From: an uncultured delta proteobacterium
GTDB taxonomy: Bacteria > Desulfobacterota > Binatia > UBA9968
Assembly (NCBI GenBank): GCA_963727625.1
Contig: CAVSHR010000010.1
Coordinates: 1-39,782, forward strand
DNA: 39,782 nt
Reading direction: 5' to 3'
Part shown: positions 1,670 through 32,267 of the stretch, one piece after another
Numbering within the stretch: the stretch's first letter is position 1
Layout: every line of letters begins with the position of its first letter
Program-made: the position numbers and the translations under genes
The notes under the pieces: model-generated
Databases searched by the model: none
What the model was told of the DNA's origin: nothing
The model's input: only the letters and a program-made list of their open reading frames with translations

Positions 1670-4600
1670 ATGACAGGTGCTTGGCAAACTAGCCAAACGG
1701 ATTATTGCCCATCCATCCCGCGGCTGCTTGAAAACCGCGCAACGGGAAGTTCCGGTCGTCCGGTAATAATCGCTCCGAAACCAGAGCCGCTTTCTTTCCG
1801 GCGGCTTTTTCTCCAAGCCCAAGAGGTGGTAAAGACGCTAAATGCTCTGGGCGTCGGTAGAAATGACAGGGTTGCAGCGGTACTCCCGAACGGCCCTGAG
1901 ATGGCGGCGGCGTTTCTGACGATCTCATCGGCTGCCGCTTTCGCCCCGCTCAATCCCAGCTATCGTGCCAACGAGTTTGACTTCTTCCTTTCTGATTTGA
2001 AGCCCGCTGCGCTGGTGGTTCAGTTAGGGACCGCTTCGCCTGGCATCTCGGTCGCCCGAGATCACTCGATTCCCATCATCGAACTAGTACCCATCGGAAA
2101 GAGGGAAGCGGGCTACTTTGCTCTCAGGGGGCAAGAACTATCGCGCTCGTCATACGCGGGTTTTGCTGAAGCAAACGATGTCGCCTTGATCCTGCACACG
2201 TCCGGCACGACCTCACGTCCCAAAATGGTTCCTTTAACCCATTCCAATTTGCTGGCGTCGGCGAGCAATATTGCCGCCGTCCTCGGACTGACGGAAGAGG
2301 ATCGTTGTCTCAATATCATGCCGCTGTTTCATATTCACGGGTTAATCGGAGCTGTGCTGTCCTCTGTCATTGCCGGGTCCAGTGTCATTTGCACGCCGGA
2401 GTTTAATGCATCTGAATTTCTCGATTTAGTGGAAAAGTTTCTTCCGACCTGGTACACGGCAGTTCCGACGATGCACCAGGCCGTCGTCGAGCGTGCCAAC
2501 GAAAATTCCCGAAAGATCGGTCGTTCGCTACGCTTGATCCGCTCTTGTTCCGCTCCGTTGCCGAGACAAGTCCTTATGGACTTGGAAGACCGATTCGAGA
2601 TTCCAGTCATTGAGGCTTACGGGATGACAGAAGCCTCCCATCAAATAGCAAGCAACCCCCTTCCTCCCAATCCGCGCAAGCAGGGCTCGGTTGGTAAGGC
2701 AACCGGAACAGAGATCGCGATCATGAGCGAATCGGGGGACTTCTTGCCGAGCAGGGAGACCGGAGAAATCGTCGTGCGCGGAAGCGGTCTCACCCGAGGC
2801 TATGAAAACGATCCCGCAGCCAATCTTAGCGCATTTGTCGACGGCTGGTTCCGGACCGGCGACCTCGGCTATCTCGATGAAGACAGATATCTTTTCATAA
2901 CGGGTCGGCTCAAGGAAATCATTAATCGCGGTGGAGAAAAAATCTCGCCGGCTGAAGTGGACAAAGTCCTGATGGATCATCCTGCCGTCGCTCAGGCGAC
3001 AACCTTTGGCATGCCACACGGCAAACTAGGCGAGGATGTCGCCGCGGCCGTTGTCCTTAGGACTGACGCTTCTGTTTCCGAGACGGATCTCCAAGAGTTT
3101 GCGGCGCTGCGCCTGGCCGAGTACAAAGTTCCGCGCCGCATCGTGATCGTCGATCAGATCCCGAAAAGTGCGACCGGCAAGCTCCAACGCCTCGGTCTTG
3201 CGGAGAAACTCGGCTTGACTGCTTCCGATCGGATCGAAGACGCTGCCAGGCATAAGTTTCTGGCACCACGCACTCCGGTCGAGGACGCGCTGGCGAAGAT
3301 CTGGGCGGAGGTGTTGGGCGTAGGCCCGATCGGAGTCCAGGATAATTTTTTCGATTTAGGAGGAGATTCCGTACTCGCCTCTCGGGTTATTTCTCGCGTA
3401 CGCGATGTTCTTGGGGCGGAGTTACGTTTTCTCACGTTTTTTTGCGCGCCTCGCCTCGTTGAAATGGCGGCAAGTATCCATGCGGGCGAGCGGAAAAATT
3501 TGAACCGAATGGCCCCGCCGCTGTTTCCAATTCCACGGGACGGCGAATTGCCTCTCTCGTCCGGCCAGCAACGGCTCTGGTTCCTCGATCAGTTGGAGCC
3601 GGGGAGTCCCGTCTACAATCGCGCGACATTCCTGCGTCTCAAGGGACGGCTCGATAGGGGAGCGCTGCAATATTCTCTCAACGAGATCGTTCGACGGCAC
3701 GAAGTTGTGAGGACGACCTTTCTATCGGTCGACGGCCGTCCACGCCAGGTAGTCAGGCCGCCGTCAAATCAAGCGCTGCCCGCTTTAGACTTGAGAGAAT
3801 TGCCTCAGGCAAACCGCGAGGGCGAGGCGAGGAGGCTGGCGATCGAGGAAAGCATGCGCTCGTTTGATTTGACTTCCGACCTTCTCTTGCGTGCCAAGGT
3901 CTTGCAGCTTGATGACCAGGAGAACCTGCTGATCCTGACAACGCACCACATTGCGTTCGACGATTGGTCGGACGGCATTCTGTTTTACGAGCTTTCGACA
4001 CTCTACAGAGCATATCTCGCAGGGCTGCCGTCCCCGCTTCCCGAACTACCGATTCAATACGCCGACTTTGCCGCATGGCAGACGACGTCCCTGCAAGCCT
4101 CTAGGGTGGAAGAGCATCTCGCTTACTGGAAGCAGCAGCTCGCCTCCGCTCCGTCCTTGCTACACCTCCCCACGGATCGGCCTCGGCCGCCGATCCGAAG
4201 TTTCCGTGGCGCGCGGTACATCATGCGTCTGCCGGAGAGTTTGGGCGAGCCGTTGAGGATTCTTAGCCGCCGGGAAGATGTCACGCTCTATATATTGCTC
4301 TCAGCGGTGTTCCAGGCGTTGCTTGTCCGTTACACTGGACAATACGACATCGTTATCGGCACACCCGTCGCGGGCCGCACTCATCTGGAAACTGAGAACC
4401 TCATCGGCGCTTTTTTCAACACTCTCGTTTTGCGCACTGACCTCTCTGGCAACCCGTCGTTCCGGAAACTCTTGCGCCGGGTGCGAGACGTCTTCTTGGC
4501 GGCGCACGCCCATTCGGATCTTCCGATTGAAAAGCTGGTCGAGGCGCTGCACCCCGAGCGTACCCTAAGCCGCAATCCGTTGTGCCAGGTAATCTTCCAA

Positions 4601-7600
4601 TTGAGAAACACGCCCAACCAGACCTTGGTATTACCTGGTCTAAGGGTAGAGGAGCTAGATTTCGACAGAGGCCTGGCAATGCTCGATTTGACGCTCGAGA
4701 TTGAAAAACGAGACCGGGGTTTGACCTGTTGGTACAACTACAATACGGACCTCTTCGACAGCGCAACCATTGCTAGTATGGCACACCGCTACCAAGAACT
4801 ATTGGAAGCGCTTGTCGCCAATCCAGAAAGACGTCTCCTTGACTCACCGCCGATTTTTGAGCCACCCCAAGCCACCAAATACCCTCCGCTTTTTGAGGTA
4901 CACACGGACGACGTTTATGAACGGTCAAACTTAACCAAGAGTCAGCTTCTTATCTGGGCAGGACAGAAACTGCAGCCTGAAACGCCTCTATATAACATGC
5001 CCATGGCGTTTTATTTAGGAGGAGAAATCGACCGGCGTCATTTTCAAAAAGCCTTTCAGACTCTCCTCGATTCCAGCGACGCTTTGCGCACAGTGATCCA
5101 GGAAATTGATGGAATCCCGCAACAAATTGTCCTGCCGAATTTCCCTTATAAAATCGAATTTCGTGACTTTTCAAGTTTTCCTGAGCCGGGCGCAGCCGTT
5201 CAAGCTTGGCTGAAAGCTCGCTGTCACGTTCTGTTTGATTTTCAGGGAGCCTTGTTCGATTGCGCTCTGGCAAAAATTTCCGACCAACAATTTATCTGGT
5301 TCTTGAATTTACACCACATCATCGGTGACGGCAGGTCGATCGAATTGGTTTTTCACCACGTAGCCCAATTTTACGAATGTTCCCTTACCGGGTGTTTGGA
5401 AAGAGCGGACCTGCCGGCATTTAAGGACTATATCGAGTACGAAAGAGAATATCGCCGCTCTCCCCGATCTCGGGAGGTCGAGAGGTACTGGAAGACGAAG
5501 CTTTCCGAACCAACCGAATCGCTCCGCTTCTATGGCAAACGTTCTGGCAAGAGAACGACCCGGATCAAAAAGATTTCATGTGAGCTGGGCGAGAACCGGA
5601 CGCAAAAGCTTAAGCAACTTGCCTGCTGGGACAAAATAGCGGTCAAGACCGAGTACGCTTCGCTGTTTAATATTTTTGCGGCGGTTCTGTTGGCTTATCT
5701 CTACCGCGTCACCGATAGTCGCGTTTTATCTGTCGGTACACCCTATCATAACCGCAGACTAAAAATGTTTCGCGGCACCATCGGATTGTTAATGGAGGTC
5801 CTTCCCCTGAGAGTGACCATCGAAGAAGATGAAACTTTTGTCTCGCTCATCCACAAGGTGGGATTGGAGGCGCACACAGCATTTCGCAATAGCCATTCCA
5901 TCGGGAACTCTCCGAGAAGTCGACTCTACGAGGTCCTTCTAAACTTTGACCGTCTATCGTTTCCTCAATTCCATGGTCTCCCGGTGCAGATGGAACGAGT
6001 GCATCCAGGTCACGAAAACGACAGTTTGGCGCTTCGCATACGAGATATTGCCGACCGCGCTGACTTTGTTATTGATTTTGAATTTCACCGCGATGTTTTC
6101 GATGAAAGTGAGAGCAGCCGCGCGGTTCAGCATTTCCTGCGGACACTGGATGAATTTTTGGAAAACCCAGAGCAAGTGCTGGACGAAGTAAATCTCTTGA
6201 CCGATGCAGAAAAAGAGCGGGTCCTGGCTGACTTTAGCCAGGGTCATTATGGCCGGCGCGACGATTTAGGTTTGCTGGAGATGTTCGAGGCTCAGGTTAG
6301 TAAAGCGCCGGATCGCCCGGCCGTCTGCTTTAAGGACCAGTCTCTCACCTTTGCGCAGTTGAATTCCCAGGCAAACCAATTGGCGCATTATTTACAGTCT
6401 TTAGGGGTGAAGCCCGGAACATTAGTGGGGATTTGTACCGAACGCTCTTTGGAAATGGTCGTTGGTTTAATGGGTATCTTAAAGGCAGGAGCCGCTTACG
6501 TGCCTATTGACCCATTTTACCCAAAGGAACGGCTTGCTCTCGTGCTAAGCGACACGCGCATGCCGGTGCTACTGTCTCAGGATCGCGTGGCGATGAATCT
6601 TCCGAAGCATGGAGCCAACATCGCTTGTTTGGACTCCCAGCGCGCGTGGATCTCTCAGATGAGCAACGAGAATCCGCTCCTCAAAGTGAGTTCCGATCAT
6701 CCGGCGTACGTCATTTACACGTCGGGCTCTACTGGTATACCAAAGGGCGTGGAAGTCACGCATGGAGCGCTTGTAAATTTCGTCACAACTGCAAGCGATT
6801 CGTTTGCGCTTCGCCCCGAGGATCGTGTGCTGCAATTTGCCTCTATTAGCTTCGACGCGGCGGCGGAGGAGATTTTCCCGTGCCTGATTCGAGGTGCAAC
6901 ACTGGTGCTGCGGACGGATTCGATGCTGGATTCCGTTTCGCTTTTCTTGGAAAAGTGTCGCGATTGGCAAATCACCGTTTTGGATCTGCCGACGGTTTAT
7001 TGGCATGAGATGGCTGAGTCACTTTATAGGCAAAAACTCTCTTTACCCGTGACGCTCCGTTTAGTGGTTATCGGTGGAGAGAGAGCCGATCCCGAACGGC
7101 TTCGTGAATGGCAGGCGTCGGTCGGCGATCGTGTCCGGCTCTTGAACACCTATGGCCCGACTGAGGCCACGGTGGTTTCTACGATTTCGGAACTCACCGG
7201 CTGCGAGTGCATTAACGCATCATTAGACGAGGTACCAATAGGGCGGCCAATTTCCAATGTCCAGACGTACATTTTAGACAAACGCCTGAATCCGACTCCC
7301 ATCGGGGTTTGCGGAGAGTTGCACATCGGCGGGGCGGGCTTGGCCCGGGGGTATCTCAACCGTCCTGAGGCCACGGCTGAAAAATTCCTTCCGAATCCCT
7401 TCATTGGCGAGTCGGGCGCACGCCTTTATAAAACCGGAGATTTGGCTCGATATCTTTCAAACGGCAACATTGAGTTCGTTGGGCGCATCGACCATCAGGT
7501 AAAAATCCGCGGTTTCCGCATTGAACCGGGTGAGATCGAGAGCATGTTGCTCCAACATCCGAGCGTACGTGACGCCGTCGTGGTGGCGCGGGAGGATAGT

Positions 7601-8134
7601 CCTGGGGAAAAACGGCTGGTGGGATATGTTGTAACCAGGGAAGCCGAAGAGGTCAGCGCCCTGCGCAATTTCCTGAAAGATAAGCTCCCCGATTATATGA
7701 TTCCATCTCTATTGATCCTTATGGATTCTCTCCCGCTCACGCCTAGCGGCAAGATCGACCGCAAAGCGTTGCCTGTGCCCGATGCAATCCGTCCGGAGTT
7801 GCAGAATGCTTTTCTGGCGCCCCGAACCTTTGTAGAAAAAAAGGTTGCCGCGGTATGGGCTGAGGTACTGAAGCTGGAAAAAGTCGGCGTTGACGATAAC
7901 TTCTTTGATTTGGGCGGCCATTCTCTTCTAGCCGTTCAGGTCATTTCACGGCTGCGACAGGCGCTTCGGGTGGAAATTCCGTTGCGCGAGCTTTTTGAGA
8001 ATCCGACTGTGGCGAGCCTCGCTGTCAGGATCGAGCAGATCCTGGAGAGCACCGTAGAACGAACGCGCAAGATCCTGGTCGATTTGGAATCACTCCCGGA
8101 CGAAGAGGTGGAGAGAACGTTTACTTCGAATTAG
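1670..8134 (+). CDS. Non-ribosomal peptide synthetase: A(acyl/oxalate-CoA-ligase-like)-T-C-C-A-T, no thioesterase
   Basis: A1 motifs HTSGTTSRPK, YGMTE, FRTGD, PKSATGK. T1 DLGGDS (Ser ~3368). C1 LSSGQQRLWF and HHIAFDD (~3944). C2 LTKSQLLIW and HHIIGDG (~5312). A2 YTSGSTGIPKG, NTYGPTE, YKTGD, LTPSGKIDR. T2 DLGGHS (Ser ~7922). Confidence 0.95.
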   Translation: MTGAWQTSQTDYCPSIPRLLENRATGSSGRPVIIAPKPEPLSFRRLFLQAQEVVKTLNALGVGRNDRVAAVLPNGPEMAAAFLTISSAAAFAPLNPSYRANEFDFFLSDLKPAALVVQLGTASPGISVARDHSIPIIELVPIGKREAGYFALRGQELSRSSYAGFAEANDVALILHTSGTTSRPKMVPLTHSNLLASASNIAAVLGLTEEDRCLNIMPLFHIHGLIGAVLSSVIAGSSVICTPEFNASEFLDLVEKFLPTWYTAVPTMHQAVVERANENSRKIGRSLRLIRSCSAPLPRQVLMDLEDRFEIPVIEAYGMTEASHQIASNPLPPNPRKQGSVGKATGTEIAIMSESGDFLPSRETGEIVVRGSGLTRGYENDPAANLSAFVDGWFRTGDLGYLDEDRYLFITGRLKEIINRGGEKISPAEVDKVLMDHPAVAQATTFGMPHGKLGEDVAAAVVLRTDASVSETDLQEFAALRLAEYKVPRRIVIVDQIPKSATGKLQRLGLAEKLGLTASDRIEDAARHKFLAPRTPVEDALAKIWAEVLGVGPIGVQDNFFDLGGDSVLASRVISRVRDVLGAELRFLTFFCAPRLVEMAASIHAGERKNLNRMAPPLFPIPRDGELPLSSGQQRLWFLDQLEPGSPVYNRATFLRLKGRLDRGALQYSLNEIVRRHEVVRTTFLSVDGRPRQVVRPPSNQALPALDLRELPQANREGEARRLAIEESMRSFDLTSDLLLRAKVLQLDDQENLLILTTHHIAFDDWSDGILFYELSTLYRAYLAGLPSPLPELPIQYADFAAWQTTSLQASRVEEHLAYWKQQLASAPSLLHLPTDRPRPPIRSFRGARYIMRLPESLGEPLRILSRREDVTLYILLSAVFQALLVRYTGQYDIVIGTPVAGRTHLETENLIGAFFNTLVLRTDLSGNPSFRKLLRRVRDVFLAAHAHSDLPIEKLVEALHPERTLSRNPLCQVIFQLRNTPNQTLVLPGLRVEELDFDRGLAMLDLTLEIEKRDRGLTCWYNYNTDLFDSATIASMAHRYQELLEALVANPERRLLDSPPIFEPPQATKYPPLFEVHTDDVYERSNLTKSQLLIWAGQKLQPETPLYNMPMAFYLGGEIDRRHFQKAFQTLLDSSDALRTVIQEIDGIPQQIVLPNFPYKIEFRDFSSFPEPGAAVQAWLKARCHVLFDFQGALFDCALAKISDQQFIWFLNLHHIIGDGRSIELVFHHVAQFYECSLTGCLERADLPAFKDYIEYEREYRRSPRSREVERYWKTKLSEPTESLRFYGKRSGKRTTRIKKISCELGENRTQKLKQLACWDKIAVKTEYASLFNIFAAVLLAYLYRVTDSRVLSVGTPYHNRRLKMFRGTIGLLMEVLPLRVTIEEDETFVSLIHKVGLEAHTAFRNSHSIGNSPRSRLYEVLLNFDRLSFPQFHGLPVQMERVHPGHENDSLALRIRDIADRADFVIDFEFHRDVFDESESSRAVQHFLRTLDEFLENPEQVLDEVNLLTDAEKERVLADFSQGHYGRRDDLGLLEMFEAQVSKAPDRPAVCFKDQSLTFAQLNSQANQLAHYLQSLGVKPGTLVGICTERSLEMVVGLMGILKAGAAYVPIDPFYPKERLALVLSDTRMPVLLSQDRVAMNLPKHGANIACLDSQRAWISQMSNENPLLKVSSDHPAYVIYTSGSTGIPKGVEVTHGALVNFVTTASDSFALRPEDRVLQFASISFDAAAEEIFPCLIRGATLVLRTDSMLDSVSLFLEKCRDWQITVLDLPTVYWHEMAESLYRQKLSLPVTLRLVVIGGERADPERLREWQASVGDRVRLLNTYGPTEATVVSTISELTGCECINASLDEVPIGRPISNVQTYILDKRLNPTPIGVCGELHIGGAGLARGYLNRPEATAEKFLPNPFIGESGARLYKTGDLARYLSNGNIEFVGRIDHQVKIRGFRIEPGEIESMLLQHPSVRDAVVVAREDSPGEKRLVGYVVTREAEEVSALRNFLKDKLPDYMIPSLLILMDSLPLTPSGKIDRKALPVPDAIRPELQNAFLAPRTFVEKKVAAVWAEVLKLEKVGVDDNFFDLGGHSLLAVQVISRLRQALRVEIPLRELFENPTVASLAVRIEQILESTVERTRKILVDLESLPDEEVERTFTSN

Positions 8135-9439: not shown

Positions 9440-10003
9440 TCATCCCTCGCTGACATGATATTCAGTGCAGCTAACTTGCTAGCCAGTGTATGAGAGTTGT
9501 TTGTCATGATCCACAATATCCTGCCAGAGTTCCACCAACTCCTGCCCATCGACTCCTAAAATCGGCAGGTCTAGAAAACCTACCTTGAAGATTTAGCGGA
9601 CCGCAATGCTCGCTTTTCGCCTTTCGCCAAAGGAAAAGTTTATAATTGTGTCTCTCCTACGGGCCGCGCAAGGCGGGCAGGACAATTCCTCGTACTTTAA
9701 CGTTTTGCATCTGTAAGCGCCGAATTGAATTCTCCCGCCACGAGGATTGTTGATTCTCGTAGCACCTATAACCAGTAGAAAACAAAGAGGAATTTTATCG
9801 CTTTGCCATTACTTTGCCAGAAGAAAAAAACGAATAAATTCGAATCTGTTCACGTCTGACAGATCGAATACCCTCGATTTCCCACGCAAAATCCCGCACC
9901 ATCCGGTATAGTGTAGACTTAAGTGGCGCTGAAAGAGATTTGATTGTTTATCAGACAACGTGGCTTCGACGTGACCGACACCCGTGTCTGCGAATAGAGC
10001 AAT

Positions 10004-19873: not shown

Positions 19874-20060
19874 CCGATCTGACTAATCGCGTCCCATGAG
19901 AGCCAAACGTAACTTGACTCGTTAGGGCAAATCTATAACTATTCCCGGCGCTAATGAAATTGCACATTGGCCAGCAACCTGAGGAGACTTAATGGCCATG
20001 CATACCCGAACGTCGCGGACGATCCTTTGCGTTCCGCCTGGCTTTGCGCGATAAGAAACC

Positions 20061-20089
20061 CTTGAACGTTGAACCTTGAACTCTTGAAC
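20061..20089 (+). repeat. Tandem heptamer array (C/G)TTGAAC x4
   Basis: CTTGAAC GTTGAAC CTTGAAC T CTTGAAC. Confidence 0.8.
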
Positions 20090-21192: not shown

Positions 21193-21642
21193 GTTGTGTC
21201 ACGCCTCACGCCTCGCGCCTCACGCCTTCCCCAGCGTGCCTCACGCCTGATCGGCTCCGCCCGCGTCGCCCATTTGGCGACGGCAGACAAAACTGGCCAG
21301 CCCCATGTCATCCCTATCTGCTTCGTCTTCGACGGCAAATGTTTCTATTCGCCCATCGACGAGAAACCCAAGCGCGCCGCGCCGCGCGAGCTCAAACGCC
21401 TGCGCAACATCAGAGAAAATCCGCAAGTCTCACTGGTGATCGATCACTACGATGAAAATTGGTCCAAACTTGCCTACGTTCTTATTTCCGGCAAGGCGGG
21501 GATTCTATCGAGTGGGAAAAAACACCAAGAGGCCATTCGTCGGTTGCGCCGGAAGTACCCGCATTATCGCCGCATGGCGCTGGAACAACGCCCCATGATC
21601 TGGGTCACAGCAACGAAAATTGTCACCTGGGGCGCAATTTGA
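21187..21642 (+). CDS. PPOX-class (pyridoxamine 5'-phosphate oxidase-like, putative F420-dependent, Rv0121-like) protein
   Basis: ARVAHLATAD..GQPHVIPICF, SPIDEKPK, LKRLRNI.ENPQVSLVIDHYDENWSKL, L.RKYP.Y. Start codon uncertain. Confidence 0.88.
   Translation: MPVVSRLTPRASRLPQRASRLIGSARVAHLATADKTGQPHVIPICFVFDGKCFYSPIDEKPKRAAPRELKRLRNIRENPQVSLVIDHYDENWSKLAYVLISGKAGILSSGKKHQEAIRRLRRKYPHYRRMALEQRPMIWVTATKIVTWGAI
21199..21247 (+). repeat. Tandem heptamer array TCACGCC in the 5' end of the PPOX gene
   Basis: TCACGCC TCACGCC TCGCGCC TCACGCC, two degenerate units, then TCACGCC in register at 21241. Confidence 0.8.
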
Positions 21643-21659: not shown

Positions 21660-23048
21660 TCAGTTGATCCCAAGAGTTTTAATTAACCGTAAAAAATATT
21701 TTTCGTGCAGTCCCAATATCTTGGCAGCTGCAGCCCGGTTGCCATGGGACTGAGCCAACGCCTGCACCGCTAGGTTTCGACGCGTTGATTCCATGGCCTC
21801 GCGATAGGAAAGATTTTGCAAGCTGGGCGATTGCGGTTGAGCGGCACCGATTCGCCCTGGCAGATCATCGATCGTCAAATGGGGACCGTTGCCAAGGACC
21901 ACGGCACGCTCGATGACGTTGGCGAGCTCACGGACGTTTCCCGGCCAGTGATAAGCTGTCAGTTTTGCCTGCAGGTCGTCCGCCAACTCGGTGAAATTCT
22001 TCTTCGACTCAGCGGCAAATCGCCGGAGAAAGTGCTGCGCCAACGGCCCGATGTCATCGGCTCTTTGGCGCAGGGGCGGCAACGTAATCGCAATCACGTT
22101 GAGCCGATGGTAGAGATCTTCGCGAAAGCGGTTTTCTTTGACGGCGCTCTCCAACTCCCGATTGGTCGCGGCGACGATTCTCACATCCACGCGGATCGAA
22201 TCGCGCCCGCCGACCCGGTCGAATTCCCGCTCCTGGAGAAAGCGCAAGAGCTTGGCCTGCAGCTCCGCCGACATATCGCCGATCTCGTCGAGAAAAACGG
22301 TGCCACCGTTGGCCAGCTCCATCTTGCCTTTCTTGAGCTGGTCGGCGCCGGTGAACGCGCCCTTTTCGTGGCCGAATAGCTCGCTTTCCAAGAGTTCTTT
22401 CGCCAAGCCGACGCAATTGATCGCCACGAAAGGCTGCTGCCTTCTCTCGCTCCAATTGTGAATAGCGCGGGCGAATATTTCTTTCCCCGTGCCGCTTTCT
22501 CCCAACAGCAATACCGTGGCAGTGCTCGCCGCCGCCTTACGCGCTGTATCCACTGCTTCGGCCATTGGTTGACTCTCGCCGACGATCAACCGATGGCGAT
22601 TGTCGGTTTCTTCCGAGAGCAATTCCCAACTCCGTTTCAGCGCCTCGCTTTCAAGGGCCTTGCGCACGACGATGTCGAAGTGACTGGCATCGAGAGGCTT
22701 GGTGATAAAATCAGATGCCCCTTCTTTCATCGCCTCCACCGCGCTTTCGATGGAACCGTGGGCGGTGATCACGACGACGGGAAATGAGGCCCTTGCCGCG
22801 CGCAAGCGGCGCAGCACCTCGATGCCGCCCATCTTGGGCATCTGCAGGTCCAGCAGCATCAACGCCGGCTCGTGCTTCTTGATCTCCGTCAGCGCTTCCT
22901 GGCCGTCGGCGGCCAATGCAACCTCGCACCCCAAAGCCCGCAGACGCACCTGCAACAGACGGCGCGCCGGCGCGTCATCGTCGACGATCAAAACTCTTAC
23001 ACCCGCGATTGTCATTTTCGGGAAAATTAAGTTTTCAGATTCAAACAA
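21660..23048 (-). CDS. sigma54-dependent NtrC/AtoC-family response regulator (REC-AAA+-HTH)
   Basis: LIVDDD and LDLQMP receiver, GESGTGKE, ESELFGHEKGAFTGA, FLDEIG, WPGNVREL, C-terminal HTH. True start may be ATG 23015. Confidence 0.95.
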   Translation of the reverse strand: MFESENLIFPKMTIAGVRVLIVDDDAPARRLLQVRLRALGCEVALAADGQEALTEIKKHEPALMLLDLQMPKMGGIEVLRRLRAARASFPVVVITAHGSIESAVEAMKEGASDFITKPLDASHFDIVVRKALESEALKRSWELLSEETDNRHRLIVGESQPMAEAVDTARKAAASTATVLLLGESGTGKEIFARAIHNWSERRQQPFVAINCVGLAKELLESELFGHEKGAFTGADQLKKGKMELANGGTVFLDEIGDMSAELQAKLLRFLQEREFDRVGGRDSIRVDVRIVAATNRELESAVKENRFREDLYHRLNVIAITLPPLRQRADDIGPLAQHFLRRFAAESKKNFTELADDLQAKLTAYHWPGNVRELANVIERAVVLGNGPHLTIDDLPGRIGAAQPQSPSLQNLSYREAMESTRRNLAVQALAQSHGNRAAAAKILGLHEKYFLRLIKTLGIN

Positions 23049-23074
23049 ATTGTTGCGCTAAGTCCGCTTTGAAC

Positions 23075-23230
23075 AAATGCGAAATCCTAATATCGAAATC
23101 CGAAACAAAGGGGCAGCCAAATAAATCCAAAAGCAGTGAAAACTCAAGATGCTGCCTGAGAACGGTCATGTTTGGAACAGTGAGAGTTCTGAACATTTGT
23201 ATTCGTTTCGAATTTCGTGCTTCGAAGTTT
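23075..23230. repeat. Imperfect heptamer-based inverted repeat without cargo gene
   Basis: Left arm AAATGCG AAATCCT AATATCG AAATCCG AAAC (23075-23106). Right arm G TTTCGAA TTTCGTG CTTCGAA GTTT (23205-23230). Confidence 0.7.
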
Positions 23231-23242
23231 TGTCCAGAGTCT

Positions 23243-23608
23243 TTACTTCAAATGACGGCCGATTTCGGCAAGAAAGATCGTCTTGTCGATGGGTTTGGTG
23301 ACATAGCCGCTGCAGCCGGCAGCCAGCGCCTTATCGCGGTCTCCCGCCATGGCGTACGAGGTCACGGCAATCACCGGGATTTCGGCCGTCGCCGGCTCGG
23401 CCCGCAGCTTGGTCGTGGCTTCCAATCCATCCATACCCGGCAGTTGGATATCCATCACGATAAGATCGAACGGCTCCGTCTTAAGGATCTCAAAAGCCTC
23501 CAGCGCGCTGGTCGCTTCGCGCACCTGATAGCCCTGCGAACGAAGCAGAAACATCGCCAGACGTCGATTCACCGGATTATCTTCAACGAGCAATATCTTC
23601 TTATCCAT
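23243..23608 (-). CDS. Single-domain response regulator (DivK/CheY-like)
   Basis: ILLVEDN, MDIQLPGMDG, AVTSYAM.GD, YVTKPID. Confidence 0.95.
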   Translation of the reverse strand: MDKKILLVEDNPVNRRLAMFLLRSQGYQVREATSALEAFEILKTEPFDLIVMDIQLPGMDGLEATTKLRAEPATAEIPVIAVTSYAMAGDRDKALAAGCSGYVTKPIDKTIFLAEIGRHLK

Positions 23609-23619
23609 CGCAACTCTCT

Positions 23620-23650
23620 ATTTTGGATTTTAGATTTTAGATTTTGGATT
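23620..23650. repeat. Heptamer array ATTTT(G/A)G x4.4, left arm of the inverted repeat around the four-helix-bundle gene
   Basis: ATTTTGG ATTTTAG ATTTTAG ATTTTGG ATT. Confidence 0.92.
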
Positions 23651-23668
23651 CAACGGACAATCGCGAGA

Positions 23669-24019
23669 TCATCGTCCTCGAAGGGTTTTTATGGATGCGA
23701 CTACCATTGCGACGATTTCGTTAGTTTCCTTCAATAACAATTTGACACGAGAGGGCTCGACAATTTTCGATTCTATGAGCAGCTCCAGCCAGTAGACGGT
23801 TTCATCTGCCTCTTCCTCAACGATCGCGAGTTTAGAGATGACGTCAGCTTTCGATTTTCCACGGCATGCTGCCCTGTAATTTGCGCCGATGGAGGTGCCC
23901 GAACGAAGTAGCTGCCTGCCAATTACATCTGCTGTTCGCCCTCTGGATAGCGATTCAACCAACCCTATAATTTCCAACGCCAATTGCCTTGTTCGGGCCT
24001 TAAATTGTTCTTCGTTCAT
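23669..24019 (-). CDS. Four-helix-bundle protein (23S rRNA IVS-protein family; Avd-like fold)
   Basis: QLLRSGTSIGANYRAA, D.ISKL.IVEEEADET.YWLELL, E..E...M..ASIKT. Confidence 0.93.
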   Translation of the reverse strand: MNEEQFKARTRQLALEIIGLVESLSRGRTADVIGRQLLRSGTSIGANYRAACRGKSKADVISKLAIVEEEADETVYWLELLIESKIVEPSRVKLLLKETNEIVAMVVASIKTLRGR

Positions 24020-24109
24020 CCTGTAATTGCGTAATTTAAAATCGAAAATCAGTCCCGAATATGGATTGTCAAGACTCCGCTAGTCATCACGTTCATTTTT
24101 CCTATCCCC

Positions 24110-24139
24110 AATCCAAAATCCAAAATCGAAAATCCAAAA

Positions 24140-24140
<1 letters not shown>
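24110..24140. repeat. Heptamer array AATC(C/G)AA x4.4, right arm of the inverted repeat
   Basis: AATCCAAAATCCAAAATCGAAAATCCAAAAT. Its reverse complement matches 23620-23650 at 29/31 positions. Confidence 0.92.

Positions 24141-32267
<8,127 letters not shown>

Follow-up and report, generated by a model that had tools for sequence, protein, structure and literature searches.

Intervening sequences (IVSs) of 23S rRNA, as found in Coxiella and Leptospira, are among the described elements closest to the cassette analysed here, and their S23p/PF05635 proteins belong to the same family as the product of the cassette gene. The gene of an IVS lies in a loop between complementary ends, and IVSs are described as sporadic at a fixed site, suggesting lateral transfer (PMC4990558). 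Occurrence of the family outside rRNA is also on record, with 18 genes inside cas loci (PMC3936711), and family genes have been listed as strain-specific (PMC8700078). Avd of diversity-generating retroelements, which has the same fold, is described as a pentamer that binds RNA bases between its protomers; in the bound RNA stem-loop, bases are flipped out and lodge between protomers, where the same residues, contributed by different subunits, hold them (10.1101/2023.10.23.563531). Intergenic heptamer repeats are a further known oddity without an origin: GGGAATC in Xanthomonas and TAACTGA in Beggiatoaceae recur with a period of 7, near stops and starts and sometimes in convergent arrangement, and the main texts of the two reports make no mention of 'four helix' or 'intervening' (PMC4692102, PMC4679880). 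A search of main texts, mostly outside subscription journals, found no literature linking the TIGR02436/PF05635 family to heptamer arms. In REP/REPIN-RAYT and MITE systems, intergenic inverted-repeat copies that carry a gene are few and those without one are many.

The window, the whole stretch of 39,782 nucleotides analysed here, carries a 521-bp cassette that lies not within rRNA but between two protein-coding genes, a histidine kinase and a single-domain response regulator (the receiver). Like the IVS, it places its gene between complementary ends and is sporadic, the gene being present in 3 of 11 relatives; unlike the IVS, it is bounded by degenerate heptamer arrays that are tied to a stop and a start codon. 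In layout and patchiness it works like an ORF-bearing IVS, but its location sets it outside that class. The predicted model of its protein has the Avd fold (TM about 0.8, 14–16% identity), and the cassette has neither the adjacent reverse transcriptase (RT) gene nor the template and variable repeats of diversity-generating retroelements. In contrast with the GGGAATC and TAACTGA repeats, its arrays lie on both sides of a gene, and the repeat unit corresponds to the clade of that gene. From REP/REPIN-RAYT and MITE systems it differs in a protein without a transposase fold, in strong site fidelity and in that no target duplication is seen. The cassette is an old resident of its junction that has been lost, hollowed out or replaced in relatives, and its likeness between two species far exceeds that of the DNA around it. 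Our preferred reading, to which we give a probability of about 0.5, is that the element represents a widespread kind of cassette that does without a transposase and has clade-specific arms of 4–5 heptamers, being semi-selfish and cycling at tight junctions.

The arms occupy positions 23620–23650 and 24110–24140 on the minus strand, each 31 nt long, 94% complementary and separated by 459 nt. The outer 5′ arm (24110–24140) comprises 4.4 inward-reading heptamer units with the core GATT, and opens on the last base of the kinase stop codon (TAA, 24142–24140). The 3′ arm (23620–23650) is its reverse complement at 29 of 31 positions; the two differences fall at arm positions 13 and 20, both of them unit position 6, and appear on the mRNA strand as one C–U mismatch and one G–U pair. 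An 11-nt spacer containing GAGAG (23609–23619) then leads to the receiver ATG at 23608. A third, partial array of the 5′ type (24033–24050, 89%) lies inside. The arms, their two differences at unit position 6, their positions at the kinase stop and before the GAGAG of the receiver, and the third array had been described in an earlier note on this DNA and were confirmed. The inverted-repeat score of 26 was reached in none of 300 local shuffles of a 3.5-kb region (maximum 17.5), and the cassette has a GC content of 44% against 56–58% in the flanks. Profile searches and Foldseek found no transposase in the cassette, Rfam gave no match up to E 1, and a promoter and terminator scan stayed at chance level, with no sigma-70 promoter on the cassette's strand.

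The front part of the cassette looks nested. Between the 5′ arm and the gene lies a 15-codon ORF (24049–24096, minus strand) with an AGGA motif upstream and a TGA that overlaps the third array, which begins in this stop codon. Within the ORF, at about 24070–24056, is a degenerate AATC-type array of the 3′ type, and this motif recurs in gene-less hairpins of the genome and in the copy of the cassette in relative G012. The ORF probably remains from a nested mini-hairpin without a gene. Neither this ORF nor the array within it, nor a second heptamer hairpin at 23082–23232, figures in the earlier note. As an alternative partner of the 3′ arm, the third array is weak (−9.7 against −34.4 kcal/mol for the outer arm).

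The gene itself (23669–24019) is on the minus strand, as are both neighbours, and encodes a protein of 116 residues matching PF05635 (E 5e-17, 62.6 bits, cut-off 33.8) and TIGR02436 (E 3e-25, 88.5 bits, cut-off 24). The predicted model consists of four long helices (pLDDT 97.7), and Foldseek matches it to 2RLD (TM 0.85–0.92, 37–39% identity) and also to 2GSC, with no nuclease or transposase fold among its results. The 2RLD structure has five chains, and a Xanthomonas protein of the family is described as a homopentamer (PMC4990558); by analogy with these two, the cassette protein would be homopentameric, and by analogy with Avd it would bind its own repeat arrays. Against the G012 copy, dN is 0.05 and dS 0.34, and with a dN/dS of about 0.15 the gene is, on this comparison, under purifying selection. 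Its GC3 is 0.49, against 0.69–0.71 in the flanks.

The junction was compared in 60 relatives and 89 family genomes, of which 11 relative loci had a kinase end and a receiver that both matched the window best; eight of the 11 share a contig with the counterpart of the window's housekeeping block. The four-helix-bundle gene stands at the junction in three of them: G012 and G076 have the full cassette, and G041 has the gene and the 3′ arm without the 5′ arm. The other eight junctions hold hollowed arms, scars or other repeat-armed inserts. G003 retains both arms around an interior made of a 9-mer-repeat mini-element, G018 retains the 5′ arm only, and G029 has a 46-nt scar. In G017 there is a GxxExxY gene that has 9-mer arms, together with what is left of the 3′ arm; G025 and G014 carry gene-less hairpins of a third, outward-reading family, G021 a run of 9-mer elements, and G034 a 73-nt hexamer hairpin. 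A clean empty junction was seen in none of the 11, the shortest gaps being the 46-nt scar and the 73-nt hairpin, and in the absence of any plain short spacer a target duplication cannot be defined. The earlier note had taken the element for an insert in a kinase–regulator operon; it is indeed optional, but the uninterrupted form of the junction was not seen.

The four gene copies at the kinase–receiver site form one clade (support 97/90) whose members span genus, family and order, which makes the cassette an old one there that has mostly been lost or replaced. Close homologues of the gene occur in 24 of 90 family genomes. A paralogous operon in the same genome has the order kinase, GxxExxY cassette, receiver, four-helix-bundle cassette, next regulator. 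GxxExxY genes are a second cargo family of the same design at the same sites: with 9-mer inverted arms they occur in the kinase–receiver loci L004, L023, L024 and L026 and at G000:C12:544377-544763, and in all of these except L024 the gene is placed at the junction. The query genome has about 46 intergenic 9-mer arrays but two GxxExxY genes.

Between the window and G012, 22 of the gene's 87 synonymous sites differ (0.26); the corresponding values are 0.50–0.55 at the kinase end (Fisher p 1e-4 for gene against kinase end), 0.71 in the receiver and 0.64–0.71 in gshB, rsmE and prmA. The gene block has the lowest value of 47 blocks of 116 codons (next 0.43, median 0.64), a value also below all 204 other block comparisons across five relatives. 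The high likeness ends about 10–20 nt outside the arms, and the G012 copy has the same 11-nt spacer before the receiver, which places the spacer inside the exchanged tract. It is probable, on these divergence profiles, that the gene was exchanged whole and that the breakpoints lie close to the arms. Right after the cassette comes a second tract, window positions 21970–23590 (the receiver from codon 8 and ntrC codons 1–348, most of that gene), which is closest to G003 (0.34–0.41, against a genomic background of about 0.6); from about codon 8 on, the nearest relatives of the receiver are a different set (G003, G029, G014, G021). Judged by this divergence, the receiver–ntrC tract is a second lateral exchange. 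The locus may simply recombine often, since this neighbouring tract was exchanged as well.

The excess likeness of the gene at the kinase–receiver junction comes from the one species pair of window and G012. In four other site sets, usable flanks were available for 22 of 36, 1 of 66, 60 of 300 and 79 of 190 pairs, under a filter that also dropped the window–G012 pair. In these sets, pairs in which the gene was far closer than either flank numbered 2 of 60, 0 of 79 and 0 of 22 usable ones, and those in which it was far more distant 1 of 60, 2 of 79 and 10 of 22, so that a general rule of cassettes younger than their flanks found no support. Either the window or the G012 assembly could be a chimera joined at the arms; of the contigs from four DNA runs, none spans an arm. 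A joint between 23650 and 24109 in one DNA contig, with 30 letters on the short side, was rejected as a candidate: it fits any gene-less GATT-family hairpin.

A second clade of the protein family alternates between two unrelated sites, with eight changes on a tree of 72 distinct sequences, and monophyly by site is rejected (p-AU 1e-7). Judging from the motifs, we take one of these sites to follow a lexA-like gene and the other an imuB-like gene. The cassette is all that the two sites have in common, which indicates an exchange of interiors or of entire cassettes between them. Within the family, the query clade keeps to its sites, with three changes for four sites.

The likely route of movement is homologous recombination anchored on the conserved arms of about 30 bp, a length near the minimum for RecA recombination. 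Interiors would then be swapped between sites that are already armed, within and between genomes. The earlier note had observed neither transposase nor target duplication and had left the mechanism open; it is less open now, the divergence pattern pointing to arm-bounded recombination. A driven process, either homing or MITE-like transposition aided in trans by a nuclease (for example GxxExxY) or an RT, with the gene-less hairpins as non-autonomous copies, appears improbable. It would account for the end of the exchanged tract so close to the arms, for repeat families with one to three gene-bearing and about 5–45 gene-less arrays each, and for the use of the same junctions by GxxExxY cassettes. 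Avd is described as working with a reverse transcriptase (10.1101/2023.10.23.563531), and the genome has seven RT matches; none is on the cassette's contig, and none was found among 34 window ORFs scanned. Against such a process stand the site fidelity within the family, a protein with neither a nuclease nor a transposase fold, a viral collection with only three relatives of the protein, and the 11 junctions, where no target duplication was seen and a clean empty allele that would define it was missing. The pattern of a recent move into the cognate site, with co-conversion of short flanks, was seen for one pair and is not general elsewhere.

Coming back to the arm-bounded cassette, the repeat code was followed across a protein family that has no known function, occurs in many phyla and often has many copies. 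The genome has 11 TIGR02436 matches, seven of them with an inverted-repeat score of at least 17 between the flanks, and at most of these loci the repeat array starts at the upstream stop. A cross-phylum set was formed from the best 80 of 563 relatives, drawn from named genomes across many phyla; 77 of the 80 had enough flank. Period-7 inverted arms are present at 58 of the 77, and both arrays, in inward polarity only, at 45. The unit of the query clade, taken from pattern-free arm alignments, is GA(T/A)T followed by three variable bases, inward-reading in many phyla, with a mode of 4–5 cores per arm (53 of 77 loci for the 5′ arm, 57 of 77 for the 3′ arm). Mismatches between arms fall mostly at unit positions 5–7 (21–23%, against 4–8% at the core). 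Within a locus, the same unit variants tend to recur in both arms (0.69, against 0.40 when partners are shuffled, 0 of 1000 reaching the observed value).

Other clades of the family have other units. Throughout the second clade the unit is of GTTCAA type, with arms at 69 of 75 scorable loci (from 80 metagenome loci), and in the third clade it reads outward, often with whole hairpins on both sides of the gene. The three clades are separate on the protein tree, the rows having been chosen by likeness to three seeds. This comparison shows, at the level of sequence, a matching of clade and unit rather than co-evolution, and such matching also follows from plain co-inheritance. For a fourth clade and for the class-level C12 clade, the searches yielded too few close relatives. 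A four-helix-bundle paralogue at G000:C4:953901-954206 has arms with an apparent period of 8 bases, not 7.

With respect to the protein, it is somewhat more likely than not that it forms a ring of five subunits and binds the arrays one unit at a time. Such binding would keep the core fixed and leave the other three bases free. The opposite position, in which the heptamers are a neutral by-product of slippage around an ordinary gene and have no role, is largely refuted and can be given very little weight. Heptamer repeats are described as common near bacterial stops and starts (PMC4692102), which speaks for it, but core, inward polarity (the 45 of 77 loci) and copy number are fixed, and the units are clade-specific across phyla.

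The arrays are pinned to the ends of the neighbouring genes. Among 52 cross-phylum loci with both arrays, the 5′ array lies within 14 nt of the upstream stop at 35 and a start codon lies within 60 nt of the 3′ array at 40, against 14 of 52 in the opposite-strand control of the same ORF test. At 17 of the 40 loci with a start, the array ends within 5 nt of the start codon without a Shine–Dalgarno (SD) motif, and an SD-like motif follows the 3′ arm at only nine of the 40. Co-oriented genes in the genome are separated by a median of 101 nt (rough gene calls). From these distances, cassettes sit at tight junctions, and the arrangement from stop to start is commoner than that from stop to ribosome-binding site. 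The joining of stop to ribosome-binding site proposed in the earlier note therefore holds for the pinning of both ends, and not for the SD motif as the usual endpoint. Coupling by reinitiation is reported to have almost disappeared once the gap reaches about 20 nt, except where long-range pairing assists it (PMC10666635).

The arms are predicted to pair, as had been supposed, with a stem of −34.4 kcal/mol and an arm-to-arm pairing probability of 0.95 in a 1-kb context; the 561-nt segment as a whole has no unusual folding stability (z −1.67). Selection on an RNA helix found no support in either of two tests: G–U pairs were not in excess over A–C mismatches in the arms of two clades (39:53 and 52:57), and unit variants were not matched in register at 24 loci (0.833, against 0.843 when permuted). 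Both tests have limited power, as tandem units pair in any register. On this evidence the arms look like binding-site arrays more than like a selected RNA helix, though pairing is expected. The simplest reading of the pattern is that each unit meets the consensus independently, as binding sites do.

The same results bear on whether the element is a true intervening sequence of the mRNA, in which RNase III would cut the stem, free the four-helix-bundle message and split the operon transcript without religation. The strength of the stem speaks for it, as do the RNase III encoded by the host genome and the excision by RNase III described for the Coxiella IVS with its same-family gene (PMC4990558). 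It is nevertheless unlikely: there is no G–U bias, no register matching and no Rfam match, none of 213 loci examined is in 23S rRNA, and an mRNA has no scaffold for cut pieces, so that cutting would presumably uncouple the genes. The likeness to rRNA IVSs that the earlier note had pointed out is borne out for the protein family and not by the two tests of the helix. For the cassette as a tolerated insert, a tentative suggestion is that the arms in the mRNA pair loosely, in any register, and bring the upstream stop beside the downstream start. A ribosome terminating at the stop would open the base of the stem, so that the operon would stay coupled and the insert would be tolerated. The null G–U and register tests give no positive support for this stop-to-start stem.

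Strict GATT arrays number 18 in the genome, all with period 7 and 17 of them outside long genes, and the query cassette is the sole gene-bearing copy among them. Several repeat families have the same composition, as given above. In some gene-less GATT hairpins the loop contains an SD motif and ATG (G000:C2:164667-164817, C6:221338-221594, C2:172091-172590), and the 3′ arm is then read as the N-terminus of the next protein. These copies suit a regulator in the service of the host, whose protein would bind the scattered arrays of its clade and tune translation behind them, the cassette being a case of autoregulation. Purifying selection on the gene, its persistence at one site across an order, the frequent position of arms in place of an SD motif and the starts of next genes inside some gene-less hairpins would all be in keeping with this. 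Such a role seems improbable all the same, as close homologues are confined to 24 of 90 family genomes, the gene is missing at the site in eight of 11 relatives, where unrelated inserts replace it, and the target genes have no evident common function.

Taken to its full extent, the preferred reading of a semi-selfish cassette would define a mobile-element class of its own, which we regard as a doubtful extension. A pentameric ring would read its own 4–5 heptamers and promote arm-bounded homing into coupled junctions, where the arms would bridge stop and start and make the insert invisible to translation without splicing. Four-helix-bundle and GxxExxY cargos, each with its own code, would compete for these junctions, and their gene-less remains would explain much of the heptamer excess. 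If arm-anchored exchange is true, it is a transposase-free route for genes into operons that leaves coupling unbroken. The clade-specific repeat code offers a direct binding assay, and reporter tests could draw on the naturally occurring states of one junction that the locus provides, whether filled, hollowed or replaced.

Heptamer elements also occur elsewhere around the cassette. The histidine kinase (24140–31897, minus strand) has 14 GAF domains, HisKA and HATPase; its true start may be at 31783, and its GAF region is far less alike among relatives than the kinase core. Downstream, the receiver (23243–23608, minus strand, by profile match) is followed by a gene-less heptamer hairpin of the outward-reading TCGAAAT/TCCGAAA type (23082–23232, minus strand) and by a sigma-54 NtrC-type response regulator (21660–23048, minus strand, by profile match), the start of which is probably at 23015–23018. 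This hairpin belongs to the family that flanks the G000:C12 four-helix-bundle clade, has five similar places in the genome (BLAST) and has family members that fill the kinase–receiver junction in G025 and G014. Further heptamer arrays lie in or near intergenic DNA of the window at 9607–9630, 20058–20084 and 21196–21230, the second of them of the GTTCAA-clade type. At 1670–8134 the window contains a two-module NRPS-type gene with condensation, adenylation and carrier domains. Elsewhere, at G000:C6:211000-229000 and G000:C2:163000-173000, there are tandem paralogous genes that we take to resemble ABC substrate-binding proteins. In the gaps of these arrays lie various repeat hairpins, as well as orphan copies of the conserved last 60–120 bases of the genes, suggesting from sequence that the arrays grew by recombination at the 3′ end of the genes.
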